DNA from: a virus
Taxonomy: Duplodnaviria > Caudoviricetes
Virus record (IMG/VR): IMGVR_UViG_3300025601_000007
DNA length: 64,000 nucleotides
Reading direction: 5' to 3' (one strand)
Positions 8,711 to 39,725 of the stretch are shown here, one piece after another. Both the position numbers and the translations under genes were made by a program. The notes beneath the pieces were generated by a model, which saw only the letters and a list, made by a program, of their open reading frames with translations, did no database searches and was not told the DNA's origin. Positions within the stretch are counted from its first letter, which is position 1, and each line of letters opens with the position of its first letter.

Positions 8711-9412
8711 ATGGCTCAAATTAGAGGTGTAGACTGTGGCTTGAACAACTGGGATGTTGACTTTCCTTTCGGAAAAGAAAGAGAAGCAATGACAGTCAAA
8801 TTTCTACAGCAGAAATTTGGGATGGCTTTTATTGACTATGAAGACTCTAAAACACACGATTTAGAAATGGTTGAGCCTAAGTTCGGCAGCACGCTGTGGA
8901 TTGAAGTGAAAAGAGACCGTTACGAATCTGGCAATATGGTTGTCGAATACTCAGGAAAGTGGGGCCCGTCTGGAATAAGTACAACTCTTTCTCATTTTTG
9001 GGTTCAATTCTTCGAAGACACACAGGAATATTGGATAATAGAAACAAATAAATTAAGAAGGCTTCTCAACAGTCAGCGACAGAAAAAGAACGTTTTTTGG
9101 AGAGGAAGAGGTGGAGACCACGGAGCTACCTGGATGTATTTCCTAAAGAGAGCTTGTTTTCATGGTCAATTTAAGATATATAAGAAGATTGACAGTGAAT
9201 TTATGAGAGTTTATTGGTCAACCCCTACAGGAGCAAAAGCGCAGACTATTTATCACAAAGAGCTTTTTTGTGAAAAATTATACTCAGAACGAAACCCCGC
9301 GCAACCTTACGCAATCTACCCGCCATTCATTAGGAGCCCAGAACTCAAAGGGTGCCGTAAGGTATTCGGCCCCAGCTCGCCTACGCAAGACTTTGGGAGA
9401 AGTAGAGATTGA
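8711..9412 (+). CDS. PD-(D/E)XK endonuclease-like protein (paralog of upstream gene)
   Basis: THDLEM...IEVKRD...SGNMVVEY...PSGISTT.SHFWVQFF; 3' end overlaps the next gene by 143 nt. Confidence 0.68.
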   Translation: MAQIRGVDCGLNNWDVDFPFGKEREAMTVKFLQQKFGMAFIDYEDSKTHDLEMVEPKFGSTLWIEVKRDRYESGNMVVEYSGKWGPSGISTTLSHFWVQFFEDTQEYWIIETNKLRRLLNSQRQKKNVFWRGRGGDHGATWMYFLKRACFHGQFKIYKKIDSEFMRVYWSTPTGAKAQTIYHKELFCEKLYSERNPAQPYAIYPPFIRSPELKGCRKVFGPSSPTQDFGRSRD

Positions 9413-10661
9413 CCAAGTAGAGTTTGATTCTGATGTCATTAAAGCAACTTTGTCCCCAAGCATGTGGGAGAGCGGAAAGCTTAAACCAGAAGTAAGAAAA
9501 AAACTTCTCAAAGCAGCAAAAGCATATTACGACTACTTAGACATTGAGCCAGTAAAGCTTAAAGATATTACAATCACAGGCTCAATGGCAAACTACAATT
9601 ACCACGACCTATCAGACATCGATGTCCATTTAATTCTAGATTATGCTGATGTCGATGATAATGTAGAGTTTGTAGGTGAGTTTTTCGCTGCCAAGAAAGC
9701 TTTTTGGGAAATCAAGCACGACATTAAAATAAAAGGACACGACCTAGAGTTTTATGCCCAGGACTCTGACCAAGAGCATCATTCTACTGGTGTTTTTTCA
9801 CTGGTCAAAAACGAATGGAATCTCAAGCCTAATCGTCAGGACTCTTTAAAGGTGGATGCGGAACAAGTTCGAAAAAAAGCTGCAGACATGATGACCAAGA
9901 TAGACCACATTGTCGACATGTCTCCTTCTCAGGTTCAGATTGAAACAATCAGAGCTATGAAGGAGAAGTTGAAAACACTGCGCCAGGCGGGACTCAATTC
10001 ATCGGCGCAGGAGTTTTCTGTAGAGAACATTGTGTTTAAGATACTTAGAAACACTGGCTATCTTCAAAAGTTGTCTGATGCCAAATTGTACGCGACAGAC
10101 TCTGAACTGTCTTTAGATGAGAAACGCACAAACGAACACGGTTTACCTGGGGAATTAAATCCAAGAATTGCGGATGCCGCAACCACCAGCACCAGCACGC
10201 AGTTTGGTGAGATTCCAGTTTCAACACGAGAAGGAGCAGAAGGTGGAAAAGACATAAACACTCTGATGGTCCAAGATGGTATCGAAGATATGTCTGATGA
10301 TAAAATCAACATAATTAAGGACTTTATCTCTTTTACCAGAGACAAGCTAGGGCTTAAGGCACCAGTTAAGGTTGGACTTAGAAAAGGAAGAGACGAGTAC
10401 ATTAAGACTACGGCATCGTATTTACCGTTTGAGAACGAGAACTACGTTCGTTGCGAAGGTAGAGCCCTTGTTGATATCCTTAGAAGCATAGGGCACGAGC
10501 TTACGCACAATAGACAACGAGAGATAGGCATATTTGACCCAGGCGATAATGTGCAAAACATTGGAGGCCATATTGAGGACCAAGCAAATTCTATTGCTGG
10601 AATCTTGATTAAAGACTTTGTCGATAATCATGGATACGAACACATTCACGAAATGTACTAA
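9270..10661 (+). CDS. Pol-beta-type nucleotidyltransferase fused to a C-terminal HExxH peptidase-like domain
   Basis: ITITGSMANYNY..SDIDVH (GS/DxD); C-terminal ILRSIGHELTHNRQ...EDQANSIAG; GTG start 16 nt after CTATTTAT (9246-9253). Confidence 0.8.
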   Translation: MKNYTQNETPRNLTQSTRHSLGAQNSKGAVRYSAPARLRKTLGEVEIDQVEFDSDVIKATLSPSMWESGKLKPEVRKKLLKAAKAYYDYLDIEPVKLKDITITGSMANYNYHDLSDIDVHLILDYADVDDNVEFVGEFFAAKKAFWEIKHDIKIKGHDLEFYAQDSDQEHHSTGVFSLVKNEWNLKPNRQDSLKVDAEQVRKKAADMMTKIDHIVDMSPSQVQIETIRAMKEKLKTLRQAGLNSSAQEFSVENIVFKILRNTGYLQKLSDAKLYATDSELSLDEKRTNEHGLPGELNPRIADAATTSTSTQFGEIPVSTREGAEGGKDINTLMVQDGIEDMSDDKINIIKDFISFTRDKLGLKAPVKVGLRKGRDEYIKTTASYLPFENENYVRCEGRALVDILRSIGHELTHNRQREIGIFDPGDNVQNIGGHIEDQANSIAGILIKDFVDNHGYEHIHEMY

Positions 10662-11671: not shown

Positions 11672-13028
11672 TCGGGTGCTTCTGTGAAAAAATCTGTGAA
11701 TCTCTTTTTTTAAGGAAATCCACCACCTCTTGAATACTTGATACTTTGTGAGACATCTCTTTCCCTTTAGACCCTAGATACCAATATCCTTCTGCGTGTC
11801 CTGTGATATGAAACCCCTCCATGCCTACATTCATCGCTGGCTCAATATCTCTTGTATAAGAATCTCCAACCATCACATAGTGGTGAGCTGGATATCTGTG
11901 CTTTAGGTTTCGGTAGATTGTTTCATCTTTGAAATCATAAATCTCGAAGTCGTAATCCGATAGCCCCAAAGACGCAATCTTCTTAACCTGCTCCAAGCGT
12001 TCTCCCATCGTGTAGATAACAACCTTGCCGTGTTTGCTGAGTTCCTCAAGTTCTTTGATTCTTCCTGGAATTTCTGCGTACTGATGGTCGTAGACTCCAT
12101 TGCCTAGTTCCACAACTTCCAGACACAGATTTTCGTATTCGTCATCTGACATTGGGGTCATAAACTGTCTGAAGTCCCCAAGCACCATAAGCAGGCTTTT
12201 TGCAAAGCTGTTAAGGCTAAAGTGTGTGGTAAAATGAGCCCCATTGTGTTTGTTTACAAAATCAGAGAACATCACTCCCAACACTTTGTCTGGAATTGGT
12301 TCCGACAACTGACTTTTGATAAGAGCCTTCACGCTATTTGCTTGGATGGTGTAATACTCATTACACTTACAAATGGTATTATCGAGGTCAGTAAATATAA
12401 CCCTGTTTTCTTTGTTTTTTGAAACGATATTTCTGACAATGTCACGGCACTCTATTACCGCTTTTATCTCATCTCCAAAATCATTGAATATGGTGTAGGC
12501 AAATATTCTTCCTGAGTCCAGTTCAGTTTCAGAAGAGTGACCAGCTAGTATTGCTCGTTTTTCAGCATCTCCTCCAGATTCTCTGTCAAGGGCTTGCTTG
12601 TTTCTTTTTGGAGAAATAACGTTGATGTTTGTCCCTCCAAGATTTTCAATAAAATCAAACTCATTCTTGAAACGCATATCTGTGATAATGATTCTTTTTA
12701 TGCCTCTAAAAGCATGCATAATCATCCACTCTTTGGCATTGTTAATCCAGACGTCTTTCCCAAACACATCTCTCCCTTCTTCTGTTCCTACGGTTTGGAG
12801 TGTCCTTCTTGTTTTTTCGTCTTTCTTAATCCAGCACTTATTTCTGTCAAGGCCTTTTTTGTAAATCCCATCTATTTTTATTTGGTCGGCGAAGCATAGG
12901 AATACCGTTGGTTTTGGTTCAAGCATCTTGCTGAACACTTTTTCTGCCAAATAATTTTTACCGCTACCTAACTTTCCTGCGAAGCCGTATATTTCAACAC
13001 CGTTTAAAATTGTTTCGTCTAATTGCAT
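11649..13028 (-). CDS. Deoxynucleoside monophosphate kinase fused to HAD-family phosphatase
   Basis: N-terminal GFAGKLGSGKN, FADQIK, LQTVGTE.GR, ITDMRFKNE, HSSE; C-terminal DLDNT and MVGDSYTRDI. Confidence 0.82.
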   Translation of the reverse strand: MQLDETILNGVEIYGFAGKLGSGKNYLAEKVFSKMLEPKPTVFLCFADQIKIDGIYKKGLDRNKCWIKKDEKTRRTLQTVGTEEGRDVFGKDVWINNAKEWMIMHAFRGIKRIIITDMRFKNEFDFIENLGGTNINVISPKRNKQALDRESGGDAEKRAILAGHSSETELDSGRIFAYTIFNDFGDEIKAVIECRDIVRNIVSKNKENRVIFTDLDNTICKCNEYYTIQANSVKALIKSQLSEPIPDKVLGVMFSDFVNKHNGAHFTTHFSLNSFAKSLLMVLGDFRQFMTPMSDDEYENLCLEVVELGNGVYDHQYAEIPGRIKELEELSKHGKVVIYTMGERLEQVKKIASLGLSDYDFEIYDFKDETIYRNLKHRYPAHHYVMVGDSYTRDIEPAMNVGMEGFHITGHAEGYWYLGSKGKEMSHKVSSIQEVVDFLKKRDSQIFSQKHPISQEELS

Positions 13029-13089
13029 TGTTTTTTATATTTTACCATGGGTGTCCTTCAGAGAGTGGTTAAAATAACTCATTTTTCTG

Positions 13090-13593
13090 CTAGGACCATG
13101 TTTGATGTGGCTCTGATACGCTTTCAAATCCATCATAATCATCAACAATGTATACTGTGATTGGAATTTCGAGCACTTTTAGTTTAGCACAACTCCCAGA
13201 TGCTTTATCGGACCCAAGAGTCTCAACCATCTCCACAAGCAACTCGTCGTGTCTTTTTATTATTCTGAAATCATGATGCACTTTTTTGTGCTGTTCATTG
13301 CGAGCAGCTTTTTCTTCGGTGTTTGCAGCGCCCCAATCAAAACTCATAAACTTGTTGTACTCTTTAGCTGTCTTGATGGTGGTGGCATTCCATATAAAGC
13401 TGTCTTTTACTTTGTTTGTGGTCACTTTTTTATACTTCCGCTTTGCGTCCCCATAAGGAAGATAGTTCCCATCTTCATCTTCTAAGTTTTCGACATAAAA
13501 ATGGCAAGGAACACCTCGTTTTTCAGCCATCCATTTGACAGCTTCTGGTGAGAGGCTGAATCCTCCGTAACATGCGTTTATTACTACTTTCAT
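13090..13593 (-). CDS. Conserved-type hypothetical phage protein
   Basis: VVINACYGGFSLS...RHDELLVEMVE...DDYDGFESV pattern. Confidence 0.75.
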   Translation of the reverse strand: MKVVINACYGGFSLSPEAVKWMAEKRGVPCHFYVENLEDEDGNYLPYGDAKRKYKKVTTNKVKDSFIWNATTIKTAKEYNKFMSFDWGAANTEEKAARNEQHKKVHHDFRIIKRHDELLVEMVETLGSDKASGSCAKLKVLEIPITVYIVDDYDGFESVSEPHQTWS

Positions 13594-13676
13594 TGAAATA
13601 TATAAATTTGACTTGGTCGCAGATAAGGTTCAGAGCCATTTTCTTCTACATGTATGCAGCTTTATAATTGTGCTTT

Positions 13677-14804
13677 TCACACTGCTATCGGCGCTTTAAT
13701 CGCTGGTAGCGGGTTGTAGTTTTTCACTTTGATGTCATCCAGAGTGAAGTCGTATATAGACTTGATGTTAGGATTCAATTCCAACGTTGGAAGCCTGGGT
13801 CCTTCGTATTTGCCAATCCTATTTTTTGCTGATTGGCGGTCTATAAAGTAGTCATCTCCAAGAATTGGCTCTTTGAAATCTTTCACCTCCATCATTTTAT
13901 CGACATCCTCTTGGTTCAAGTGGGTGCGATTCAAATATGAGTTCACTTGGTCTCTGTGGTTCACATAAAGATGTGCATCTCCAAAAGTGTGTGTGAACAC
14001 TCCTGGGAGCATTCCAGTGACCTGGGCAATCATGTGTGTGAACACAGCATATGACGCGATGTTAAAGGGCACTCCGAGGAATACGTCGGCACTTCTCTGA
14101 TAGAGTTGGCAATCAAGCCTCTTTGTTGGGAGGCTTTCTCGGTCGTAGCCTAGCTCGATTGCTTTTTCTATTTCTTCATAGCTCAAATCTACAACGTTAA
14201 ACTGGTACATACAGTGACACGGAGATAAAGCCATGTCTGGTAAATCATCTACATTCCAAGAGTTTACGATGTGCCGTCTTGAGTCTGGATTGTTCTTTAA
14301 GCCCTCAATAAGACTCTCAAGCTGATTGGAGGTGCCATTTTTAATTCCAACCCACTTTACCCACTGCTTACCATAGACAGGGCCTAACTCTCCCCATTTA
14401 AGCACCCAAGAGTCATTGTGTGGTCGGCGCTTAATCTCACTTATAAACTCAGCCTGTGTTAAAGGTCTTGTACAGTTGTTTTGAGGGTCTTCTGTATGGA
14501 ATTCATAGTCTGGCTCATCCAGGCTCTCTGCATGCGTTAGAAACGTCTTATATGCCCATTCATTCCAGATGTGAACTTTGTTGTCGACAAGATACTTTAT
14601 ATTGGTATCTCCTTTGATAAACCATAAGAGTTCAACAAATACTCCGCGAGTAAATGTTTTCTTGAGTCCCAGAAGTGGAAATCCGTCTAGAAGGTCGTAT
14701 TGGTTCTGGTATCCGAAGATAGAGTAGGTTCCAGTTCCAGTTCTGTCGCCTTTTAATCTTCCTTTCTCCAAGATGTGTGATACGAGGTCGTTAAACTGTT
14801 TCAT
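13677..14804 (-). CDS. thyA: Thymidylate synthase
   Basis: DRTGTGT, ELLWF, IWNEWA, GPVYGKQW, MALSPCH, YQRSADVFLGVPFNIASY, HTFGDAHLY. Confidence 0.96.
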   Translation of the reverse strand: MKQFNDLVSHILEKGRLKGDRTGTGTYSIFGYQNQYDLLDGFPLLGLKKTFTRGVFVELLWFIKGDTNIKYLVDNKVHIWNEWAYKTFLTHAESLDEPDYEFHTEDPQNNCTRPLTQAEFISEIKRRPHNDSWVLKWGELGPVYGKQWVKWVGIKNGTSNQLESLIEGLKNNPDSRRHIVNSWNVDDLPDMALSPCHCMYQFNVVDLSYEEIEKAIELGYDRESLPTKRLDCQLYQRSADVFLGVPFNIASYAVFTHMIAQVTGMLPGVFTHTFGDAHLYVNHRDQVNSYLNRTHLNQEDVDKMMEVKDFKEPILGDDYFIDRQSAKNRIGKYEGPRLPTLELNPNIKSIYDFTLDDIKVKNYNPLPAIKAPIAV

Positions 14805-15352
14805 TAGTCCTTCTTTTCTAAGATTATCCGCTCTGCGTCGGTATCTCTGTTTATAGCTTTCTCACTGGAGAACTTTTTACCATAACGCTTAGTGAGTTTC
14901 TCGATGTTTCTATCCCAAATGGATTTGATGCTCCATTTATGGTTTCTAAACAAGATGGCTAGGTACCAAAAGATGTCACCTACTTCTTCTTTGGCGTTGA
15001 CCAAGTCAAATTCTTTCTGCTTCCACTTGTGATTGTACATCGCCTCTAGAAGTTCTCCTGCTTCTGTGCACACTCCTATGACAGCGTGCATATCTGATTC
15101 TTCTGCATCCACTGATGGTGTGAAGGCTTCGTTTAAACCTGCTGTTTGAACAGGAGTTTTAAATCCTTCAGGAAGGTCTTTGCCGTAATATTTGTGTTTC
15201 TTCATTATATCCAAATCCTCTGTTGCTTTGAGGAATTGTTCGATTGCTCCTTTGAGCTGAAGCTCTCTTTGGTACAATGGGTCTTCTGTGTCGTGGCCGA
15301 ATGACCCGCTAACAAAGGCCTCGCTTTTCTTGAGGTATTTTTTGAATTTCAT
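14804..15352 (-). CDS. MazG-like nucleotide pyrophosphohydrolase
   Basis: HAVIGVCTEAGELLEA...KEEVGDIFWYLA...NIEKLTKRY; start taken at MKFKKY. Confidence 0.82.
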   Translation of the reverse strand: MKFKKYLKKSEAFVSGSFGHDTEDPLYQRELQLKGAIEQFLKATEDLDIMKKHKYYGKDLPEGFKTPVQTAGLNEAFTPSVDAEESDMHAVIGVCTEAGELLEAMYNHKWKQKEFDLVNAKEEVGDIFWYLAILFRNHKWSIKSIWDRNIEKLTKRYGKKFSSEKAINRDTDAERIILEKKD

Positions 15353-15490
15353 TCGAAAATGTTGTTGTGTTGCAAGCGCAAACATACAACAAGTTGTCTA
15401 TAATTCAAAATTAGATTATAAAATTGACCCCGAAAGAATGCAGGATAATACGCCGCCATCCCTTGAAAAATAAAACAAAACCAGCTCGCT

Positions 15491-15541
15491 GTATATAATT
15501 AATGGCTAAAAAGCCACTAACCATATACAATTGTTGTGTGT
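15491..15541 (-). repeat. attC-like site A (degenerate)
   Basis: On minus, ACACAAC-AATT-GTATATGGTTAGTGGC...GCCATTAATTATATAC hairpin just after the stop of 15545..15832; distal core site missing. Confidence 0.55.
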
Positions 15542-15544
15542 AAT

Positions 15545-15832
15545 TTAATCTAAGTCTTCGCCCATTCTACAAAGTATATCTTTTAAATCCCATAAAACTA
15601 AATTGCACTTGTTCCATTGGCTAAATGTTTTGTCGTAATCATTCATAAGGTTCTTGCTCTTATACAAGTCTAAGTTTTCGCTCAATTTAGCTTTAAGGGT
15701 TTCTTCCTTTTTAATAAGTTCGTGAATAAAACTACGCCCAACATTGTATAAATACAATACTCGCTCTAGTGCCTCTTCACTACCTATTTCTAATCTTTGG
15801 TGTTGGTCTTTTATATTATCTATTTCTGTCAT
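15545..15832 (-). CDS. Hypothetical protein (cassette cargo)
   Basis: ORF in the AT-rich block; a 14-nt tandem duplication (TCATTGTCGTACTG x2) spans its start region. Confidence 0.6.
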   Translation of the reverse strand: MTEIDNIKDQHQRLEIGSEEALERVLYLYNVGRSFIHELIKKEETLKAKLSENLDLYKSKNLMNDYDKTFSQWNKCNLVLWDLKDILCRMGEDLD

Positions 15833-15859
15833 TGTCGTACTGTCATTGTCGTACTGTTT

Positions 15860-15879
15860 TTATACTTACCGTTACCTAC
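15860..15879 (-). repeat. attC-like half site B
   Basis: On minus, GTAGGTAAC-GGTAA-GTATAA overlaps the TAG stop of 15876..16127. Confidence 0.6.
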
Positions 15880-16127
15880 AATGGCTGATACTTTAGTTTA
15901 ACCTTATGTTTCGCCAAGTAATCGCATCTACAAACAGCAAGTGTTATATCATCATAGGCACTATCACAATCAGCGTGCGTAACGCTTGGAACCCATACGT
16001 GATAGTTTGGTTTTTGTTTAGTTCCTTCATTACTTACATAATAGCCATTTACATTATGTAATATTCCAAGCTTTACTTCTTCTTCTTCAGTTCCATTTGG
16101 CTCGTATTTATTTTTTATTTCAGTCAT
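15876..16127 (-). CDS. Hypothetical protein (cassette cargo)
   Basis: Flanked by GTTACCTAC (15871-79) and GTAGGTAAC (16161-69). Confidence 0.65.
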   Translation of the reverse strand: MTEIKNKYEPNGTEEEEVKLGILHNVNGYYVSNEGTKQKPNYHVWVPSVTHADCDSAYDDITLAVCRCDYLAKHKVKLKYQPL

Positions 16128-16160
16128 TTATCAAAGTTTTTAGTTTATAAAATCGCCACA

Positions 16161-16227
16161 GTAGGTAACAATGTATAAAATTAACCTACGGTCGCTATCG
16201 CTTAATCTTATACTAAACGTTATGCTC
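16161..16227 (-). repeat. attC-like site C (complete)
   Basis: GTAGGTAAC-AAT-GTATAA-AATTAA...TTAA-TC-TTATAC-TAAAC-GTTATGCTC. Confidence 0.75.
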
Positions 16228-16310
16228 CATGCCTTAGTTCAGTTCTTCGATTTAACATTTGTAATGAAAAACAAAAAGAATTTCGCCAACGCAAAACAAA
16301 GATAATAAAA

Positions 16311-16799
16311 TTATTTCAAATTAATACTATATTTTTGAATATTTTTACTTATATAATCTTTTGCTGATTGGTATTCGTTAATATCATATTCAAAACTTTC
16401 TTCAGATGCAAACTCTTTACCTGCATAATTATCTATCAAATATTTAGAGTTTGTTATGTCCCAATCAATAACTGGATTTATATCATAAAAATCTTCATAT
16501 AAATCTTTAAGTTTTCTAACACCTCTTGCATCAATTATAATATTATGGTTATTTGGATGATAGCAAAAGGCATGAACAAAATTGAAATTATATTCAGCAT
16601 CTTCATCAACATCTTCAAATTCATCGTTAATTACCGCTATTTGATATTGTGGAAATATTTCATTCAACGCAACACAAAATGGAATACATTCACCACTCAT
16701 CCATTGTTCAATATCATTTTCATTTATTGTGTGATTTTCATTCACAAACTGCTTAAAGTTCTTAACTTTATCAATTATTTTACGCATATCTTCACTCAT
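16311..16799 (-). CDS. Cassette-borne protein with capsid-targeting-like N-terminus and a possible Cys-His-Asp (papain-like) domain
   Basis: MSEDMRKIIDKVKNFKQFVNE; GECIPFCVAL...HAFCY...IIDARG; ATATTTAT 13 nt upstream (16813-20). Confidence 0.7.
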   Translation of the reverse strand: MSEDMRKIIDKVKNFKQFVNENHTINENDIEQWMSGECIPFCVALNEIFPQYQIAVINDEFEDVDEDAEYNFNFVHAFCYHPNNHNIIIDARGVRKLKDLYEDFYDINPVIDWDITNSKYLIDNYAGKEFASEESFEYDINEYQSAKDYISKNIQKYSINLK

Positions 16800-16905
16800 A
16801 GTTTCTTTATATATAAATATTCGGTTTTTAAAACTCCACTCTAAAATTCTTTTTATTTTTCTTTCGTGTTTCAAATCAACATTATCAGTTAATAAATCGG
16901 CACGA

Positions 16906-17001
16906 GAGCATAACAAGGTGTATAAGAAAGTTTGCTATCAGCATTTGTGGTAATTTGATAGTTTATCTAAGCAAACCTTCTCATACACCCAGCCGTTATG
17001 T
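16906..17001 (-). repeat. attC-like site D (complete)
   Basis: GAGCATAAC-AAG-GTGTATAAGAAAGTTTGC...GCAAACCTTCTCATACAC-CCAGCC-GTTATGT; 16/18 arm complementarity. Confidence 0.8.
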
Positions 17002-17008
17002 GTAAGTG

Positions 17009-17449
17009 TTACATTAGTGATTCCAAATAACCTTTTTCTATAATATTTTCCAAACCATTAAATTCTAAATTAGTATCAATTTTAAAAACATTACCATTAG
17101 ATGGTTCAGAATAATAATCAGTATAACCTTCACCAACCACAATAACATCATTAATTAAAGTACTATTTAATAATGAATCAAAAACTCTATGATAACCATC
17201 AACTAAAAACAATAAATTATTATCAGTTCTCCAAACATTTAAAGGTTCTTTATTACTATGTGATTTTTTACCATCAATAAAATTATTAAAAACCCCCATT
17301 AAACTTCTTTTACTCAATATTAATTCATTTATGTTAATCTTTAATAAATCATAATATTCGTCACTTTCTTCATCATAATATTTATTCTCATTCAAGAACT
17401 TACCAAAGTTCTTAACCTTATTTATTTGTTCTCTCATTTCTTTACTCAT
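17009..17449 (-). CDS. Cassette-borne ParB/Srx-like protein with capsid-targeting-like N-terminus
   Basis: MSKEMREQINKVKNFGKFLNE; EPLNVW...FLVDGYHRV. Confidence 0.7.
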   Translation of the reverse strand: MSKEMREQINKVKNFGKFLNENKYYDEESDEYYDLLKININELILSKRSLMGVFNNFIDGKKSHSNKEPLNVWRTDNNLLFLVDGYHRVFDSLLNSTLINDVIVVGEGYTDYYSEPSNGNVFKIDTNLEFNGLENIIEKGYLESLM

Positions 17450-17462
17450 AACATTTCTTTAT

Positions 17463-17482
17463 ATATACATTCCGCTGTGTGT
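17463..17482 (-). repeat. attC-like half site (degenerate)
   Basis: On minus, ACACACAGC-GGAAT-GTATAT just after the stop of 17487..17711. Confidence 0.45.
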
Positions 17483-17486
17483 AATA

Positions 17487-17711
17487 CTAGCCCTCGTTTT
17501 CCCATTTATCTAATATTTCTTTGTAATACTTAGATTCTTTTAGGTTTTTGTGTGGGTTATTTTTCTTTAATCCATTCGGCAACGAACAACATAATCCATC
17601 ATGTCCTGTCATGCCATCACCTGTATGGCATCCACATTTACACTCCATTACAACTGCCCACTTATAAAACTCATAATTTACACAAAGAGTACACTTACAT
17701 GATTTTCCCAT
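17487..17711 (-). CDS. Small Cys-rich hypothetical protein
   Basis: CKCTLC, CKCGCH and CC motifs; 74 aa. Confidence 0.6.
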   Translation of the reverse strand: MGKSCKCTLCVNYEFYKWAVVMECKCGCHTGDGMTGHDGLCCSLPNGLKKNNPHKNLKESKYYKEILDKWENEG

Positions 17712-17769
17712 ATTTGTAATTTAAATCCGTACTAAGCCTAATACTACCTATAATCCATTGCGAAAAGCA

Positions 17770-17796
17770 ACGTATCATAGCCAAAACGCTAACTAC
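17770..17796 (-). repeat. attC-like half site E (degenerate)
   Basis: On minus, GTAGTTAGC-GTTTT-GGCTATGA; 8/9 complementary to the core of site F. Confidence 0.5.
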
Positions 17797-17880
17797 AAGC
17801 GGGTGTAGTGGCACGTATTTAATTTTCTGCGTAATCAGAAGAAAAAATAAAAGCCACCCGCTTTTGGTTTTACCAACCAA

Positions 17881-18384
17881 TTAGGTTCTCCACAATTGGA
17901 GTGTTTTTAGTTCATATGCTACAATTCTTCTAACAATTGCATCAAATGTTTTTTTACTGTATTTACCGTCAGGTAAATCACTACCTCTATTCCAGTCTTC
18001 ACCAACTCTGTTTTTTCTAGTTGATGCAATACAGCCTAGGTATCCACTACTTTTATCTGTTGGTTTATATCCAGAAATTGAGTAATAGTGGTCGTTTGTA
18101 TGTAATCTGCAAATAAACTTGTTTTTTCCTGCCTCTTTAGTGTCAAGGAAAATTAATGCTTGCGAGTCAACATTTCCATATCGCACAAGTTCTTTTAACC
18201 ATAAGGCAAACTCAGGAGCAATATCAATAAGTTCTTCGTACTTAATCAATGTTGAATTGTTTTTCTCACTCAACCTTCTTTTTAATTCTTGGTTGTATTC
18301 TTCATTTGTTTCTACTCTTTCCACTTGTGGATGAGCATCTGTTTTTTCGGGGGCATTTTTGCCCGACTTAACATCTTCTTTCAT
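17881..18384 (-). CDS. Hypothetical protein (cassette cargo)
   Basis: YLGCIASTRKNRVGEDWNRGSDLPDG motif; lies between sites E and F. Confidence 0.7.
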   Translation of the reverse strand: MKEDVKSGKNAPEKTDAHPQVERVETNEEYNQELKRRLSEKNNSTLIKYEELIDIAPEFALWLKELVRYGNVDSQALIFLDTKEAGKNKFICRLHTNDHYYSISGYKPTDKSSGYLGCIASTRKNRVGEDWNRGSDLPDGKYSKKTFDAIVRRIVAYELKTLQLWRT

Positions 18385-18480
18385 CTTATTATTAATTTAT
18401 TTTTACCCACCCTTCTTTTTATTTTTTAGTGCTTCGTGCTTCGTGCTTCGTACTAGCGTTGGTGGGTCATTAATCCGCCA

Positions 18481-18543
18481 GTAGTTAACACTGTGTAAAT
18501 TGCATAGCGAAAAGCTACGCACCTTATACAAACCGTTATATGC
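18481..18543 (-). repeat. attC-like site F (complete)
   Basis: GTAGTTAAC-ACT-GTGTAA..GCATAGC-GAAAA-GCTACGC..TTATAC-AAACC-GTTATATGC. Confidence 0.72.
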
Positions 18544-18599
18544 AATGCTACGTTTCTGCTTCGTATTAAGTTCTGTGTAAAAACCTTTTAAAAATTTCA

Positions 18600-18905
18600 C
18601 TACTCTTGATATAACACACCACTTTCAAAAGCAATTTCATTTTTTTCTAAATTAACAACACAATTAAATAATTTCCACACATTTGTTTCGTTACTTGGAA
18701 CAACAAAAATTGAATCATATTTTCCACTTACTAAATCATAACCATATTTAGATGTGAAATTAATTTTGAATGGATTCCATTTTTGATAACCAGTTAAAGA
18801 TTTTGAACCATCTTCATTTGTTTTTTCTTCTAAGTAAATTGAAGGGTTTTTTTCAAAACTTATTTGACATATTATGTCACCTAAAATAATCTTACCTGTT
18901 TTCAT
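18600..18905 (-). CDS. Hypothetical protein
   Basis: 101 aa ORF in the AT-rich block. Confidence 0.55.
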   Translation of the reverse strand: MKTGKIILGDIICQISFEKNPSIYLEEKTNEDGSKSLTGYQKWNPFKINFTSKYGYDLVSGKYDSIFVVPSNETNVWKLFNCVVNLEKNEIAFESGVLYQE

Positions 18906-18946
18906 TTTTCTTGTTTTATTTTTTCTTGTTTTATTTTACTCACACA

Positions 18947-19222
18947 CTATTTAGTTTCATAAAACATAGCACCTTTTTCCTTAGCGAAATTTTTTATGTA
19001 ATTTATCATTTGTGTTGAATAGTCATTCCCTCTAAATTCTCCATCAACACTAATCATCGCCAAATAAAACTCTTTTTCGAGATTTGGTAAATATTCTGAA
19101 AATTGACCACCGTCATAATAATATTCAATATACCCAATTTTATCATCACCATCTAACTTATATTGTGATTTTTCATTCAAATATTCACGTATAGTTGTTG
19201 CTATAAATTTTCGTATTTCCAT
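18947..19222 (-). pseudogene. GNAT acetyltransferase-like, probably C-terminally truncated
   Basis: MEIRKFIATTIREYLNE then ISVDGEFRGNDYSTQMI..IKNFAKEKG; ends abruptly next to a short tandem duplication. Confidence 0.5.
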
Positions 19223-19250
19223 ATTATGATATAATTGATTTTATCACCCT

Positions 19251-20342
19251 TTACTCAGAAACGCTTCCAATGGCCAAGTGAATGTCGTATTCCATCAGTG
19301 TAATTTCTGTCTTATTGCTTTGATTCATCCACATTATTCGGTCATTAATCGAGTTGATTGACTTTTTAAAATACGCAGCTTTCTCGTATGCTTCTGTGTC
19401 TGCAGCTTCTAACATCTTCTCACTTAAATCATTTACAAGGCTCTTTGATTTCTCTAAAAGAAAATTTATAGGTATAGTTTTGTCTTTTAAATCAATCATT
19501 TCTTGCTTTATTTCGTTGCTCAACCTAATTAATTGACTAAAATGTCGAGGAGACTCCAGATTAATCGTGATGTAGTTAGCAAGATTTATATCAGCTGATA
19601 TCTCCAAAATAGACACCACTTTTTTGATAGAATATTTATCGTGGTCCACCGCTTCTTTTGTTTCAAATTGAAAAGTTGCCGTGTATAAGCAGTCTATGTC
19701 ATTAATAAATTCTTTATAATTTGACACACTCTCAAAATACAGCTCTTTCGTGTTTCCTCTGTCGATTCTTCTAAATTTCGCTCCTATTGGTTTAATAAAT
19801 CTTTTTCCAGCGTCTCCTTTTTTTGTGTAAAAATCTCCGTTGAGGTTATAAATAACATCTCCATCTTTGAGGAGCGCTCCTTCTAAGAAAAGGTAAAAGT
19901 ATAATTCAATTGTTTCTCCTACTGGTGGAATTCTAAATTTGCTCCCCAATGGCAATGTGGAGTGAGAGACATCTAATAGAAAATCTTCTTGTGATGTTGA
20001 TTCTTGAGCCATCTCATCTTCTACTTCCTGAGATATGGTGCTTAGCTCTTTTCGAATGGCTTCTTCCAGGCTTTTATTATAACTCATACCAGTTTCGTCA
20101 AGAGTGCTTCTAATCATCTTGTTGCTGACCTTCACACTTTTAGCGTTTTCGAATGTAAGGGGCTCTGTTTGAACAAACCCCATCCTTTTCAACAGCTTGC
20201 ACGCCCTAGCAAAAGAGGGTTGGTCCATAATTTCTGTATTAAGTGTAGGAGAGTTTGGTGAAGTTATGAAAATCATAGTTTCCCTTTCTTCTGAGAAAGG
20301 GTTCTTTATTATACAGTATCCAAGTTTAATATTGCTATTCAT
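19251..20342 (-). CDS. Hypothetical protein with C-terminal UVR (UvrB/C) motif
   Basis: EKMLEAADTEAYEKAAYFKKSI. Confidence 0.72.
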   Translation of the reverse strand: MNSNIKLGYCIIKNPFSEERETMIFITSPNSPTLNTEIMDQPSFARACKLLKRMGFVQTEPLTFENAKSVKVSNKMIRSTLDETGMSYNKSLEEAIRKELSTISQEVEDEMAQESTSQEDFLLDVSHSTLPLGSKFRIPPVGETIELYFYLFLEGALLKDGDVIYNLNGDFYTKKGDAGKRFIKPIGAKFRRIDRGNTKELYFESVSNYKEFINDIDCLYTATFQFETKEAVDHDKYSIKKVVSILEISADINLANYITINLESPRHFSQLIRLSNEIKQEMIDLKDKTIPINFLLEKSKSLVNDLSEKMLEAADTEAYEKAAYFKKSINSINDRIMWMNQSNKTEITLMEYDIHLAIGSVSE

Positions 20343-20350
20343 AATCCTTT

Positions 20351-20367
20351 CTATTTATGATAAATAG
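20351..20367. promoter_or_regulatory. Palindromic double CTATTTAT site between divergent genes
   Basis: CTATTTAT-G-ATAAATAG between ATG 20342 (-) and ATG 20399 (+). Confidence 0.6.
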
Positions 20368-20398
20368 CATCAAATTGATAGGTAAACACTTTTAAATC

Positions 20399-21025
20399 AT
20401 GACAAAAACATTCACAGTGGCTAGTGGCAAGCACTATTTTAAAGGATTAAAATTCCAAGAATTATTTTACCCTATCCTTATGCTTGTGGTTACATTTGGA
20501 TTATCTATATCTTCTTTTGTTCAATCTACTTTCGTCTGGGGAGGATTAGGGGCTTCGTTGATATTATATGGATTTGCAAAATGGAAACTGTTAGACCTTG
20601 AGATATTGGCTAGATTCTCACCAGAGTGTCTTTACACTCTAGATACTAATTTTGACCAAATAAACAAGCTTTATGGCTTAGGGGAGGGTGTGCACCACAA
20701 AGATTCTGCAAGATTCGGCTGGAGATGTGTAGACGGTAAGAGTATCGAGATTATAGCTTACTGCTACGTTAGAGGCGAAAGACAAAGTAGAAAGCTTATG
20801 GATTGCTCCACTAATGAATGGTTAAAACTGGATTTGTACATTGAAAAAGGTAAGTATGTGTTTGTCGGCGAAAACGAAGACGGTGAGAAAGCCAGAGTTT
20901 CTATGCCAAGACGAACGGGTTTCTTCTTTGGTAGACTATTTACTTACAAACTGTTTCCTTACTTTGGAGGGTCTATTGGTGCTCCGCACCAGATGTCTAT
21001 AGAGGTGGTGGAAAAAGAAAAATAA
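20399..21025 (+). CDS. Hypothetical protein with two N-terminal TM segments
   Basis: Hydrophobic aa 22-60; NKLYGL..HHKDSARFGWR...LFPYFGG domain. Confidence 0.75.
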   Translation: MTKTFTVASGKHYFKGLKFQELFYPILMLVVTFGLSISSFVQSTFVWGGLGASLILYGFAKWKLLDLEILARFSPECLYTLDTNFDQINKLYGLGEGVHHKDSARFGWRCVDGKSIEIIAYCYVRGERQSRKLMDCSTNEWLKLDLYIEKGKYVFVGENEDGEKARVSMPRRTGFFFGRLFTYKLFPYFGGSIGAPHQMSIEVVEKEK

Positions 21026-21028
21026 GAG

Positions 21029-21301
21029 ATGGAAAACAAAAAATCAAACCTAAGCGAAACTGAAGAAGAAGCTCTGAGAAATTACATTCGTGAGCTCATG
21101 GTCAAAGACTTGGGTGAACATGATGCTTTATACACTAAGCCTAAGCATTGGAAAGACGAAGTAGCAGACCTGAGGACTGATATGACTCAACTATTACAAC
21201 ATATTGAGGATGACGAGTACCAAGATGGAGTTGAAAATATTGACCGAGTAACTTCTAAATTGAAATCTTGGAAAAACAAAATAAAAAAATACCTGAACTA
21301 A
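21029..21301 (+). CDS. Hypothetical protein with LRNYIRELM motif
   Basis: ORF carrying the recurrent motif. Confidence 0.65.
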   Translation: MENKKSNLSETEEEALRNYIRELMVKDLGEHDALYTKPKHWKDEVADLRTDMTQLLQHIEDDEYQDGVENIDRVTSKLKSWKNKIKKYLN

Positions 21302-22239
21302 TCACAGTGCTGGCTGTTGGAGGGAATGGCTGATATATGTGGAGGAAGCTCGAAATGAGGATGATGCTCCTGAATCTTGACTACGTTGTTTTCATCTAAT
21401 TGAGACAGGTCCACAAGGGCTTTGTAGTTTTTTAAATAATGTATTAACAGCAATTCTATTCCGTATGGAGTTAATTCCTTTATTCTCGCTCTCATTGCCA
21501 AATGTAGTTCTTCATAGTCAAAGTTTGCCATAAGCTTCACTAACTCGTACACGTCCGCATCTAAAAATATAACTGGGTCCATGTGTTCATACATCTGCGG
21601 TTGACTCTCTAATATAAACCTCCAGTCCGTTGTTTTAAGCGCTGATAAACTCACTAGGTGTATAAACACCTCTCCCGTTGCTGCAAGCAGCTCTCCTATT
21701 TGAAGATTGTTGAACTTCTGATACGGAACACTCATCACTACTTTTTTTTGAAACCCATATGCCTTTGCAATCTGAAACCCTTGGATGTAAGAGAAGTTGT
21801 ATTTGTGAATGTCTATTTTATCCAAAAAATACTTAAGTCCCATAAGCAGTAAGGAGTGGGCTTCTTCTTGATTGATGCTAGATATCTGAATCCCTAAAAA
21901 GCTTAGTAAATCTGGCCTTCGTTTTAAGATGTGCATAACATCGCCAACTCTAAGCCCTCTTTCTTTTAGCTTAATGTGGCTTTCAATAAACTCTGTTTCC
22001 TGATTGTCAATTAGCCTGACCACACAGCGAACTAATTTTCGTACAGGCATACTATTCCAGAGAACTTTGTCTCGAACATAAGAGCAATCACAAATAGTTT
22101 TATCACTCAACCTCTCAATATCTACTTTTGACATCAAGTGACTCATTTCGCCTTCTTCAAAGTATTCCCAACAGTTTTCTATGAAGTAGTATGTAAATGC
22201 CTCAGCTATGTGTCTGACTTTATCTTTTTTTGAAGACAT
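21298..22239 (-). CDS. Hypothetical protein
   Basis: 313 aa ORF. Confidence 0.7.
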   Translation of the reverse strand: MSSKKDKVRHIAEAFTYYFIENCWEYFEEGEMSHLMSKVDIERLSDKTICDCSYVRDKVLWNSMPVRKLVRCVVRLIDNQETEFIESHIKLKERGLRVGDVMHILKRRPDLLSFLGIQISSINQEEAHSLLLMGLKYFLDKIDIHKYNFSYIQGFQIAKAYGFQKKVVMSVPYQKFNNLQIGELLAATGEVFIHLVSLSALKTTDWRFILESQPQMYEHMDPVIFLDADVYELVKLMANFDYEELHLAMRARIKELTPYGIELLLIHYLKNYKALVDLSQLDENNVVKIQEHHPHFELPPHISAIPSNSQHCD

Positions 22240-25528: not shown

Positions 25529-26968
25529 TTAAGTATAATCTCCACCTATGGTCCAGTAGTATTTGGTTCCTGTGTAGTAGAATGTAACAATATCTTCACT
25601 ACCGCTATTTGAAGTGATGTTAAGCAACCCTCCTGCTCCATTAACAACAGCTGAGCTCCCTGGAGGAGCTAAGGCGTGTCCGCCTGAAGCATCTTGCTTC
25701 ACTAGAAGGGTGCCGTAGTCTCCTGCAGATACGTTACTTACATTTAAAGTGGTATCTGCAGTAAGGATTAAGAAAGCATTATGTCCGAACTCTAAATTCC
25801 AAATAGTGGTCGTGTTGAATGCAAGAGTCTGTGGTGCTCCACCTGTGTTTCCTGTTAATTGAGATACTAGCGCTATTGTCCCAGAAGCATCTGGAAGACT
25901 CCAGTTTCTATCAGCTGTGAGTAATGAACTAAAGTCGAGCCCAGCCATTCGTGTTCCATTGTAAGCTGATATAAAACCATTTCCGTTTGTTTGACTTCCT
26001 GATTTAAAGAATACGCCATCTTCTCTAAGGATGTCAAGTGTTTTCCCAACATATCTAAGAGCTCCATAAGTATCTCCTGTAATCATGAAGATGTCGTCTG
26101 AATCAGCGCGAACGCACCAATCACGGGCGCCAGAAGATGTTCTAAAAGTTAGGGATTCGCCAGAAATTGTTGGAGAGCCCTCAGTTACTATGTTGTTTTG
26201 AATAATGGTTTCTTGCCAGCTTTTATTTCCACCTCCTGATGTGAGCCCAGTCCATGCTCCATTTATATATTGAAAAAGGCCTGTGTTTGCAGAATACGCT
26301 ATGGCTCCGTCAGAAGTGTTTGTTGAGGGAAGCGTTGCTCCAGAAAATCCTCGCATTTGAATCATACCTTCCCAAGTGATTGCCGCAGCGTTGGCTCGTT
26401 CGCCCGCTCCTGTTCCTCCCCCAAGAATCATCCCGTAGTCAGTTGCTGTAAAAGAATTAGTCCCTTGTGGCTGCGCATATCGGCCAATAACCACTTGAGA
26501 GTTTCCAGAGGCTGTGTTTGAGAGTCCTCCAGCTGATGAGTATAAGGCTGAAGCAGTATTCCCACTACCTCCACCCACAAATGAATATGGGCTTGTTGCT
26601 GTATTATCTCCCTGGATTGTTAGCAACGATGTGGCTGTGGACCCAGATTTCCAATATGCAGACTCAACACTTGTAAAGTTTGTTTGCCCTGTGTAATCAT
26701 ATAGCGTTAACTGCGCCCAATCACTTGAAGTGTAGTCCCAGGGCGTCGAATTAAGTCTATAATACATTCGGACACCATTAGAAATGGTTCCAGCAATCAT
26801 ACCAGCTCTACGTCTTTGAACTGTAATTCCAGAGAGGACAGAACTGTCTCCTGAGAAATTTCTTAATCCATCAACGCCATAAATTGTGTCGGTTACTGGA
26901 TAAGTATCCTCACTGTCCGTAGGGGCTATAAACCCTGTTACTCTAACACTTCCTGGTATTGCTCCCAT
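25529..26968 (-). CDS. Tail-fibre/baseplate-like protein
   Basis: G.IAP.D..D.YP...RRRAGM N-terminus; NTASA/NTASG beta-roll repeats; Gly/Ser/Thr-rich. Confidence 0.65.
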   Translation of the reverse strand: MGAIPGSVRVTGFIAPTDSEDTYPVTDTIYGVDGLRNFSGDSSVLSGITVQRRRAGMIAGTISNGVRMYYRLNSTPWDYTSSDWAQLTLYDYTGQTNFTSVESAYWKSGSTATSLLTIQGDNTATSPYSFVGGGSGNTASALYSSAGGLSNTASGNSQVVIGRYAQPQGTNSFTATDYGMILGGGTGAGERANAAAITWEGMIQMRGFSGATLPSTNTSDGAIAYSANTGLFQYINGAWTGLTSGGGNKSWQETIIQNNIVTEGSPTISGESLTFRTSSGARDWCVRADSDDIFMITGDTYGALRYVGKTLDILREDGVFFKSGSQTNGNGFISAYNGTRMAGLDFSSLLTADRNWSLPDASGTIALVSQLTGNTGGAPQTLAFNTTTIWNLEFGHNAFLILTADTTLNVSNVSAGDYGTLLVKQDASGGHALAPPGSSAVVNGAGGLLNITSNSGSEDIVTFYYTGTKYYWTIGGDYT

Positions 26969-27867
26969 TATGTAATCGTTATATCAATTGCCGCGCCTAG
27001 AATATTCTTAGTCCTATATATCCTGTAATTTGTTGTTTGAGAGTTCCCGTTAGTCACGGATACGGTTTTATAGTGGAATCCATTTTCAGAACTTGCATAC
27101 CCCTCTGCTGTGCCTGCCATTACCAAGTTGAACCCTGTTTGGTCATCTTTGATTGTGTTTATTGCATCAAATGAGTCAGGTACACAGAAGTATTTATATC
27201 CACCAGCAGCAAGTGTCCATGTGCCAGCAATTGAAACAACTAAAGAATCCTCTGAAAGAGCTTCAATTTGCGTTTCGTTTAAAGCTGTGTTTGTTGAGGT
27301 TCCGTAATACATCTTCCATCTCCACTCCATTGTAAATGTTTTTGAAAAATCTACACTCTCTGAATCTGTTCCTTTTATTGTCCATTCGTGAGACCCAGGA
27401 GTTGTTTTCTGAATCGTTGCTCCTAGTGCCAAGTTTTCTGTGCTGTCATCAGCTAAAGATGAACCAAGTGTGGCTGTGTTGGTTGTGTCCACGATTAATA
27501 ACGTATTTCCTAGTACGTTAGCAGAGTTAGTTGTGGTCCAAGTGAATGTTTTTGTTCCTGATATAGACACTCCCGCCTCTACAACCACCGCTTGGCTATC
27601 TATTTCAAATGCTGAAAAAGCAGGATGTTGAAAGGGGTACAACAGAAGGTCGAACATTTGTTGAACATCGAAATTTCCCCCGAATGTTGTTCCTGCATCA
27701 ATACCACCTGCATCAATCGTTGTGGGGTCTGAGTTAGTGAAAAAACTACCTGAAAACCCAGTAACACTTCCTGTGGCCAGGCACATAAAATTGTCGTTAA
27801 TTTTATTCCTTCCTTCGTTAGGCGTGTCTTGTGGGTATATGTTGTATATGGTGCAGCCAGATGGCAT
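26968..27867 (-). CDS. Virion structural protein (Ig-like or beta-rich)
   Basis: GRNKINDNF motif, Thr-rich beta domains; CTATTTAT 16 nt upstream (27884-91). Confidence 0.65.
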   Translation of the reverse strand: MPSGCTIYNIYPQDTPNEGRNKINDNFMCLATGSVTGFSGSFFTNSDPTTIDAGGIDAGTTFGGNFDVQQMFDLLLYPFQHPAFSAFEIDSQAVVVEAGVSISGTKTFTWTTTNSANVLGNTLLIVDTTNTATLGSSLADDSTENLALGATIQKTTPGSHEWTIKGTDSESVDFSKTFTMEWRWKMYYGTSTNTALNETQIEALSEDSLVVSIAGTWTLAAGGYKYFCVPDSFDAINTIKDDQTGFNLVMAGTAEGYASSENGFHYKTVSVTNGNSQTTNYRIYRTKNILGAAIDITIT

Positions 27868-38565: not shown

Positions 38566-39264
38566 TTACTCAATGCCTTTTTTCAAAAGCTTGTTTAATG
38601 TTTCTTTAATTGCAATTGGAAGCTGTGCAGGGTTTCCAAGCGTTTTTAGATGCCAGTTTATTTCATCATAAAAACCCATGTTATTAATAGGGGCACCAGA
38701 TGCTAATGTCCTTTTAATCGCGAGGTCTAATGCTTCTGCTGGTTTAATTGAGGTAGCAACTGAATTAGAACCTCCGTGCTTCTGCTCGTAATCGTCCACA
38801 AGAGAATTCACACTACGTCCACGGTGCATGCCTACAGATGCAGGAGTCGAGTATTGTGATTCATCTATTTTAGCTCTATTCTCTGACCCAGGGTCATGAA
38901 CAGCACATTTCTTCATTTTTTCGTACTCCTCTCTAAGTCTTTGCTCTGCGAGAGTTTCTGTTCTTTCTTTTTTTTTCATATTGCTTTCGTTAAACCCATA
39001 ACTCAATCCTTCGCTTGATGGGACTTCCTCAAATACCCACTCTACCCAATCCTTGCTAGGGCGGTTCCAACTTTCATTGCTTGTAATAAGATTATTTACG
39101 TACTCTTCAAATTTCTTTCTATGCTCAGGAGTGAGTAAAATGTATTCTCCCTCTGGCCATAGTCCTGCGCCTGTTCTGACTCCTTTTGTAAAGTTATTTG
39201 TAAACTCTTTAACTAATGCAAACTGTTTGGTTAGTCTGTTATAGACGATGTCTTTGGTTACCAT
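38566..39264 (-). CDS. Hypothetical protein
   Basis: 232 aa ORF. Confidence 0.7.
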   Translation of the reverse strand: MVTKDIVYNRLTKQFALVKEFTNNFTKGVRTGAGLWPEGEYILLTPEHRKKFEEYVNNLITSNESWNRPSKDWVEWVFEEVPSSEGLSYGFNESNMKKKERTETLAEQRLREEYEKMKKCAVHDPGSENRAKIDESQYSTPASVGMHRGRSVNSLVDDYEQKHGGSNSVATSIKPAEALDLAIKRTLASGAPINNMGFYDEINWHLKTLGNPAQLPIAIKETLNKLLKKGIE

Positions 39265-39725
39265 GTCACCATCCCTATGCCCATGCTTCCTGAATAGTGT
39301 CTAATCGATTTAGGGATTGAGGACTGATACACCTTGTCAAGGTCCCAGGTGGATGTTCCTATCATTGAGTTTGTGGTGTTAGGCGGTTGGTCATCATCTC
39401 CCATTAGGTTCCCATCGTCATCAATAACCTCTTCTAATTCGCCTTCTTGTTCGGAAGATGTTTTCAAAAAATCTTTAATGAATTTTTTGTAAGGAGGTTT
39501 GCTTTCGCCTTCTAGAGAGCTAAACCACTCTTTAAACTTCGCAAACGAAGTAACTATAGAGGCTTTGGTTCCAAAGTTGGTTGAAAAATCAATACGGATG
39601 TAATCATCATCTTTGTCAAATGCTACATGTTCTACACCTCCAACAGTATCTTCAGATATGTGGTTGTAGCCATTGTCCCATTCAGACATAGATTCCAGCA
39701 AGAATTTTTTGATAGATTTTCCCAT
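39258..39725 (-). CDS. Acidic hypothetical protein (SIKKFLLE motif)
   Basis: CTATTTAC 17 nt upstream (39743-50). Confidence 0.7.
   Translation of the reverse strand: MGKSIKKFLLESMSEWDNGYNHISEDTVGGVEHVAFDKDDDYIRIDFSTNFGTKASIVTSFAKFKEWFSSLEGESKPPYKKFIKDFLKTSSEQEGELEEVIDDDGNLMGDDDQPPNTTNSMIGTSTWDLDKVYQSSIPKSIRHYSGSMGIGMVTW

Follow-up and report, generated by a model that had tools for sequence, protein, structure and literature searches.

Portable N-terminal leaders on cassette-borne genes of an uncultured giant phage, a candidate variant of the T4 internal-protein system

The internal proteins of T-even phages are diverse apart from their targeting sequence (PMC3012670). In T4, the residues used for targeting have been mapped to positions 4 and 7 and those used for processing to positions 8 and 10 (PMC9026906), and the prohead proteases of T4-type and giant phages cut after Glu, with T4 propeptides of 10-20 residues (PMC5694885). 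Here, this system is compared with three genes of an uncultured giant phage from a salt lake, found at 16311-16799 (gene A), 17009-17449 (gene B) and 18947-19222 (a GNAT gene) of a stretch of 64,000 nucleotides (nt), hereafter the window, of the IMG/VR virus record IMGVR_UViG_3300025601_000007. Each of them starts with a leader of 17-21 residues that ends in a hydrophobic residue, any residue and Glu (hydrophobic-x-Glu). From the comparisons given below it appears reasonably probable that these genes are the cargo of a cassette system of uncultured T4-type giant phages, and that the leader loads this cargo into the head.

Like IPI, IPII, IPIII and Alt of T4, the leader genes have a short putative N-terminal propeptide, ending hydrophobic-x-Glu, on unrelated and fast-evolving proteins; their carriers have a protease and a capsid of T4 type, the leader of one homologue agrees with T4 at the four mapped residues, and some of the cargo is ADP-ribosyltransferase, which is also the activity of Alt. 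Unlike in T4, the leaders belong to other sequence families and have spread among giant phages that are only distantly related, one of which (the complete 288-kb genome G002) has about a dozen; they lie in hairpin-bounded cassettes and are described here from sequence. The domain repertoire of the cargo overlaps with that of the polyvalent proteins of phages and conjugative elements, reportedly described by Iyer and co-workers in 2017, for which delivery with the incoming DNA has been proposed: ART-PolyVal is found among the G002 leader cargo, and ParB-like and papain-like peptidase domains are also part of the polyvalent repertoire. In contrast to these giant fusions, each domain is here a separate small tagged protein. 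In phiKZ and SPN3US, head-packaged proteins are likewise cut after Glu by a related prohead protease, but the cut is made at A/S/G-x-E, and the propeptides often exceed 100 residues and are not portable modules (PMC5694885).

With respect to gene exchange, promoter-early-stem-loop (PeSL) modules of T4-type phages mediate gene shuffling in plastic regions (PMC2839356, PMC4122927), and attC clusters without an integrase are known in lytic phages (PMC9892861). No description of leader-bearing cassettes was found in the literature.

Leaders on unrelated bodies

The first-pass annotation, made from the sequence of the window, had pointed to near-identical N-termini on the unrelated domains of genes A and B. 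A leader is indeed shared, within a DNA repeat of 89 nt (16734-16822 against 17384-17472, 72% identity) that spans about 23 nt of upstream sequence and the first 22 codons, and the bodies are unrelated; with 13 of 21 leader residues identical, the wording was nevertheless too strong. Each type-1 leader of the window (type 1 in gene A, type 1a in gene B) is 80-95% identical to a widespread subtype, and both type 1 and the type 2 of the GNAT gene recur at such identities on dozens of unrelated bodies in uncultured giant phages of low guanine-plus-cytosine (GC) content. Type 1 was found in front of unrelated bodies in 23 viral loci and in metagenome proteins, with hardly any change between proteins of 95-280 aa that are otherwise unrelated; for type 1a, the number of unrelated bodies exceeds ten. 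Conversely, the body families of gene A, gene B and the GNAT each occur with several leader types. The gene B body was found with types 1a, 1, 2 and other leaders, while the search with gene A gave about 42 body homologues (54-94% identity) whose N-termini are of type 1, of type 2, a 10-residue MKTYIQFISE or many others of 8-22 residues, nearly all of which end hydrophobic-x-Glu. Across the alignment of 33 homologues of gene A the terminal Glu is at least 90% conserved, and the remainder of the leader varies. The leaders are thus portable N-terminal modules, with the same leader on different bodies and vice versa. A wider search gave a single match among 185,579 species genomes, on a 3.7-kb contig of a metagenome-assembled genome.

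A profile of the leaders reached at least 8 bits in 3.2% of the N-terminal segments of G002 proteins versus 0.1% of internal segments. In the genome around the three genes (the resident genome), gene A, gene B and the GNAT gene stand out at 14-25 bits. Weaker leader-like N-termini ending hydrophobic-x-Glu were observed in the resident proteins 39258-39725 (minus strand), 6648-6929 (plus strand) and 33990-36203 (minus strand), the first two at 6.5-6.6 bits; these may be what the first-pass annotation called resident tags. Hybrid leaders were also seen (P0004, P0080 and L020 5218-5754), in which a complete type-2 leader, with its own Met, follows directly on the first four codons of type 1 (M-x-x-D); this arrangement points to recombination inside the leader region.

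Since the conservation extends into non-coding DNA, the whole 5' module could be regulatory or recombinational only, comparable to a PeSL, with a peptide that has no role of its own. The conserved unit measures about 270 nt (75-89% identity), beginning at the hairpin, taking in the promoter-like motif and ending within the first codons, and T4 ipII and ipIII share upstream sequence; PeSLs mediate shuffling of this kind (PMC2839356, PMC4122927). Nonetheless, among 22 copies of the type-1 leader the proportion of synonymous differences (pS) is 0.71, near saturation, and that of nonsynonymous differences (pN) is 0.09 (pN/pS 0.13). The synonymous sites have diverged and the peptide has been kept, and therefore selection acts on the peptide and not only on the DNA. 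Furthermore, unrelated leader types keep a common length, an amphipathic pattern and the final hydrophobic-x-Glu. A module in which the peptide is without function is for these reasons very improbable.

In the predicted structure of gene A, residues 3-16 form a detached helix with a predicted local distance difference test score (pLDDT) of 54-58, followed by a linker, the pLDDT of the whole model being 86.7. The model of gene B likewise has a low-confidence leader helix and a linker ahead of a confident body. These models are consistent with a short, separate N-terminal propeptide of 17-21 residues, and by sequence match the leader ends fit the L/I-x-E-type site of T4. In the T4 record, IPII and IPIII start with MKTYQEFIAE, and the gene A homologue P0008 starts with MKTYIQFISE, which has the same residue at each of the mapped positions (Y4, F7, I8 and E10). 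The leader, a free amphipathic helix with a flexible linker after it, for which no binding partner was identified and whose Glu is followed by a residue unlike that of the T4 sites, might instead direct or dock the protein elsewhere, for example to the tail or ejection apparatus, a chaperone or a membrane, or be an inhibitory propeptide that another protease removes. Against such a role stand the agreement of the short variant with T4 at all four mapped residues (PMC9026906), the conservation of the terminal Glu, the upstream motif that the leader genes share with the head protease gene and the T4-type proteases of the carriers (both described below). We consider it unlikely, though it deserves more weight than a peptide without function, and retain loading into the head as the preferred reading.

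Promoter-like motif and head machinery of the carriers

The motif ATATTTAT that the first-pass annotation placed 13 nt before gene A is found there, at 16820-16813 on the minus strand and followed by 13 nt to the ATG at 16799. Two motifs dominate upstream of the genes of G002. One is TAnnTTTG, which we take to be the Bacteroidota housekeeping promoter type, found before 92 of 344 genes (L039-L053) and often with TATTGTCTAATTAA after it; the other is ATATTTAT, before 53 of the 344 (a ten-fold excess). The latter precedes the genes of the prohead protease, the T4-type large terminase (TerL) and gp25, and is also present upstream of the tail sheath gene. It precedes nine of the 12 leader genes of G002 versus 39 of the 332 others (Fisher p 1.6e-6), and in other contigs 17 of 23 leader genes have TATTTAT no more than 45 nt upstream. 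Given that the motif precedes protease, terminase and baseplate genes in G002, we infer that "late-type" is a fair label for the motif of gene A.

A PF03420 protease and a PF07068 capsid protein are encoded by four of the five large leader-bearing records (G001, G002, G004 and G005), two of which are complete (362 and 288 kb). The proteases of all four carry LIE at residues 17-19 (L027-L030), and T4 gp21 has LIE near its N-terminus (PMC9026906); this LIE may be a self-cleavage or targeting site. In the capsid proteins of G001 and G002, LTE is found near residue 60, and SFE, 13 residues later, is also a candidate for cleavage; an alignment of the T4 and G002 capsids did not fix the site, leaving LTE and SFE as candidates. 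The nearest cultured relative of the capsid is that of a Flavobacterium T4-like phage, and this kinship, together with TAnnTTTG, indicates that the hosts of the carriers are probably Bacteroidota. The leader cargo of G002 includes ART-PolyVal and Arr-type ADP-ribosyltransferase domains, and Alt of T4 is packaged and processed by gp21 (PMC9026906). When the G002 protease was modelled together with residues 1-45 of a G002 leader protein, the complex scored 0.01, which is no verdict either way.

Taken in this way, the leader-cargo cassettes are a new variant of the internal-protein system of T4. A full cassette would consist of a hairpin recombination site, a late-type promoter-like motif, an amphipathic leader of 17-21 residues ending hydrophobic-x-Glu and a variable enzyme or binding domain. 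The leader would work like the T4 capsid targeting sequence: the protein, made late, would enter the core of the assembling head via its leader, the prohead protease would then cut after the leader Glu, and the mature cargo, which in this phage would comprise a putative Cys-His-Asp enzyme and a putative protein of ParB/sulfiredoxin fold, would be injected with the DNA. The packaging-like tag of the first-pass annotation is upheld as regards selection at the protein level, the hydrophobic-x-Glu ends and the protease and capsid of the carriers, while packaging and cleavage, like late timing and injection, are what we infer from analogy and association.

Cassette boundaries and recombination

The homologous segment that the gene A cassette (Table 1) has in common with 10-12 unrelated contigs is bounded exactly by (A/C)TAAC (16999-16995) on one side and ATAAC (16223-16219) on the other, and beyond these two boxes the flanks are unrelated between loci. 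Inside, the 270 nt from the hairpin to the leader end and about 80-100 nt after gene A recur in many contigs (75-98% identity), where the bodies that they enclose are unrelated. The boxes of the hairpin, ACATAAC and GTTATGC, have one mismatch each to the attC boxes RYYYAAC and GTTRRRY. At loci elsewhere the sequences after the ATAAC box differ, and 12 of 14 still fold into long imperfect hairpins, mostly closed by GTTAT or GTTAG (z -2.4 to -8); this result comes from a test anchored after the conserved box, two genome-wide scans having been too strict or too loose. The units therefore behave as exchanged cassettes with sharp ends, and the proposal that effectors are swapped as cassettes finds support in these ends, in the portable leaders and in an import-like composition (see below). 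Homologues without attC-like flanks, an observation that the first-pass annotation had set against its own proposal, do occur (L036, LR756508, RsoM2USA and phage G), but they are not syntenic core genes, as that objection also demanded. The N-termini of L036 and RsoM2USA end hydrophobic-x-Glu within about ten residues.

Table 1. Positions of the leader-bearing genes, their cassette elements and neighbouring features in the window
Feature	Position	Strand	Description
Gene A cassette	16219..16999	minus	exchange unit, ATAAC box to ATAAC box; hairpin, promoter-like module, leader, body, conserved 3' module
Hairpin	16910..16999	minus	imperfect, 90 nt, ATAAC and GTTAT ends, attC-like; -32.7 kcal/mol on gene strand, -22.5 on other strand
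Late-type promoter-like motif	16806..16820	minus	ATATTTATATATAAA, containing the 8-mer ATATTTAT at 16813-16820
Gene A leader	16737..16799	minus	type 1, 21 codons, ending V-N-E
Gene A body	16311..16736	minus	small domain, invariant Cys-His-Asp triad, probably papain-like fold
Gene B	17009..17449	minus	type-1a leader (17387-17449, ending L-N-E) on body of probable ParB/sulfiredoxin fold
Gene B truncated 5' module	17450..17472	minus	degraded motif, TGTATAT in place of TATTTAT
Three leaderless island genes	17487..18905	minus	17487-17711 (Cys-rich), 17881-18384 and 18600-18905, with hairpin-bearing spacers between
GNAT remnant	18947..19222	minus	type-2 leader (19172-19222, ending L-N-E); no promoter motif of its own
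Resident-type motif	20360..20366	minus	TATTTAT (in gcTATTTAT), 17 nt before resident gene 19251-20342

Both described exchange systems share traits with these units. As in PeSLs, a conserved stem-loop and promoter module between variable small genes marks the points of exchange; PeSLs, however, have early promoters, encode no protein part and recombine by homology (PMC2839356, PMC4122927), whereas the cassettes have a late-type motif, a leader and ends at a 5-nt box, and TAnnTTTG, the host-type motif of the carriers, is absent from their module. With the attC cassettes of integrons (PMC9892861) they have in common imperfect hairpins with AAC/GTT boxes, whose structure is kept and sequence varies, sharp ends at one box and an Xer/IntI-like recombinase beside the arrays of G002 and of a further leader-bearing record, G003. 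They differ from the integron arrangement, in which a promoterless gene reads towards attC, in that the genes here lead away from the hairpin, from which the promoter-like motif separates them.

G002 has a row of five leader genes, with both leader types represented and with spacers of this kind. The only tyrosine recombinase of this genome (268 aa, Xer/IntI-like; L020 8145-8951) adjoins the row and is followed by a sigma-70-family gene (9032-9907), at about 54.3-55.8 kb of G002. The neighbourhood is the same in G003, with the recombinase (L018 8031-8840) about 2 kb from leader cassettes, while G001 has only an N-terminal recombinase remnant of 116 aa (L013 7136-7486). The recombinases next to the G002 and G003 arrays are short and scored 152-153 bits on TIGR02249, below the IntI cut-off of 265. 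A tentative extension, to which we give somewhat less than even weight, is that giant T4-type phages of Bacteroidota run an integron-like platform of their own, in which a short Xer/IntI-like recombinase, attC-like hairpins, an ATAAC crossover and cassettes with a late promoter and a head-address tag would serve to trade injected effectors between distantly related phages; the region studied here would be one product of this exchange, between genomes about ten points apart in GC content. Elsewhere in G002, an open reading frame of 393 aa at 72703-73884 (minus strand) has an N-terminus that by eye resembles TnpB/IS605 OrfB.

State of the island in the resident phage

The window is part of a 109-kb record whose completeness was judged to be about 31%. 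The genes from 16311 to 19222 all lie on the minus strand, on which their features were read. The resident contig has ThyA-like, MazG-like, SbcCD-like and CCA-enzyme genes, and a block of its large genes is syntenic with G002, at 25-40% identity. The tagged genes and their spacers have a GC content of 0.22-0.29, compared with 0.38-0.42 in the surrounding genome, so that the difference in composition claimed by the first-pass annotation is clear; it fits an import of this island from low-GC phages. No match to GenBank phages was obtained by megablast with 13000-22000 or by blastn with the 272-nt spacer and leader. A PHROGs search gave weak acetyltransferase matches for the island genes and otherwise none, and no match for nine large resident genes outside the window.

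The domains that the first-pass annotation had assigned to genes A and B are supported by invariant residues, with fold matches that are weak. In gene A, C38, H76 and D90 are invariant among the 33 homologues; SseI is the best fold match (Z 5.4), followed by protein-glutaminase, PMT and NAT (Z 3.5-4.3), all below the safe level of the tool, and Foldseek against the PDB gave nothing at E 0.001 or better. These matches are mostly papain-like deamidases, glutaminases and acyltransferases, and the modelled body is probably a Cys-His-Asp enzyme of papain-like fold. In the gene B family a DGYHR motif is invariant, and Foldseek matched ParB/sulfiredoxin-type proteins only (probability 0.9-1.0, E 4e-3 or weaker); a Pfam search of gene B gave no match. 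Relatives of the gene B body are found in phage G, in RsoM2USA and in a 484-kb uncultured phage. The relative in RsoM2USA, a cultured Ralstonia phage of 344 kb, is gp256 (L002 1450-1872), which starts with the nine residues MKFSDYILE in the style of the T4 targeting sequence.

A tagged GNAT had also been proposed, and the leader is present. The product of 18947-19222 reaches 23.2 bits on PF00583, for which the cut-off is 20.7, in an alignment limited to profile positions 40-93, and its full-length relatives are GNATs of about 150 aa with variants of the type-2 leader. The gene therefore lacks a complete GNAT fold and is a deletion remnant. It starts 28 nt after a resident gene. The gene after the remnant was considered as the missing half of the GNAT and rejected, since the sequence gives no support to this idea.

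A number of observations weigh against the proposal that these genes are head-loaded cargo of a cassette system at work in this phage. The leaders of the window do not evidently resemble the T4 targeting sequence, and the residue after the leader Glu is mostly N, Q or K and not A, as it is at the IPII, IPIII and gp23 sites of T4. On the resident contig, which represents about 31% of the genome, a search for a prohead protease, a capsid gene and a tyrosine recombinase found none, a gp21-type protease being present in four of the five large leader-bearing records; PF00589 gave zero matches on this contig, so that no recombinase adjoins the island. In IMG/VR the resident phage has no close relative (the best is at 31% identity), and for this reason its head machinery was deduced from distant kin, at 25-40% identity. 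The resident genome has 15 copies of ATATTTAT in 109 kb, about the number expected by chance from base composition and thus no enrichment, and because copy number alone is near chance the meaning of the motif depends on its position and on the comparison with other phages. The enriched upstream motif of the resident genome itself is CTATTTAT, one base off ATATTTAT; it occurs 25 times as often as expected, in 13 of 131 upstream regions, and in the form (g)cTATTTAT(a) it lies 13-20 nt before the ATG of about 16-22 genes, for example at 20360-20366 and before 29619-31916 and 26968-27867. A late-type promoter of their own, ascribed to the cargo genes by the first-pass annotation, is found for gene A, where the label comes from G002 genes. 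The copy before gene B is degraded to AATGTATATATAAAG, its 5' module extends no further than about 21 nt upstream of the ATG and its hairpin is lost, and the GNAT gene has no such motif. Finally, the GNAT product has 91 aa versus 147-154 aa in its relatives, owing to two in-frame deletions of about 9 and 49 residues.

This state of affairs would suit an island that is an inert and decaying passenger of recent import, with tags and a promoter that have lost their use for the resident virion: its GC content is below the genome value of 0.39, gene B has lost its hairpin and the quality of its motif, the GNAT is short of about 60 residues, and there is a one-base difference to the resident motif. 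However, the reading frames of the three genes are all open, and close variants of the three genes, at 94-99% identity, keep them; nearly the whole island is present in at least 19 salt-lake metagenome runs; and comparable leaders are seen on some resident proteins, such as those that start at 39725 and 6648. A wholly inert passenger is accordingly rather improbable, less so than a peptide without function and more so than another destination for the leader. The island is better described as a partly decayed import from low-GC phages, in which gene A is fully equipped and is alone in keeping the whole module, gene B is partly equipped and the GNAT is a remnant.

No RNA run was found among the runs listed as holding the island. 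In salt-lake contigs from four runs the island occurs in pieces, and other contigs depart from the conserved modules at 16734, 16911 and similar positions; given the short sides and the unknown inserts, these joints were not used as evidence of cassette loss. Concerning the leaderless genes of the island, a relative of 18600-18905 adjoins leader cassettes in G003. The product of 17487-17711 (minus strand) is a small leaderless Cys-rich protein of 74 aa, and a different small Cys-rich protein (L013 5558-5788) is encoded just before a leader cassette of G001. Tandem repeats of 14 nt were observed in two spacers just before gene starts, at 15826-15853 and 18426-18453 (CTGTCATTGTCGTA twice; a TTCGTGC-type repeat). 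Terminator-like sites were looked for on the minus strand inside the island and none was found; the motif at 20360-20366 could give read-through into the island.

If the proposed loading into the head is correct, a large and exchangeable kit of proteins would enter the host together with the DNA, at the stage that decides defence and counter-defence. The tag would in that case allow such proteins, many of them without a known family, to be recognised in metagenomes by a simple sequence marker, and short leaders could become tools for loading foreign proteins into the capsids of phages other than T4. The link between tag and hairpin cassette would explain how such kits are renewed.

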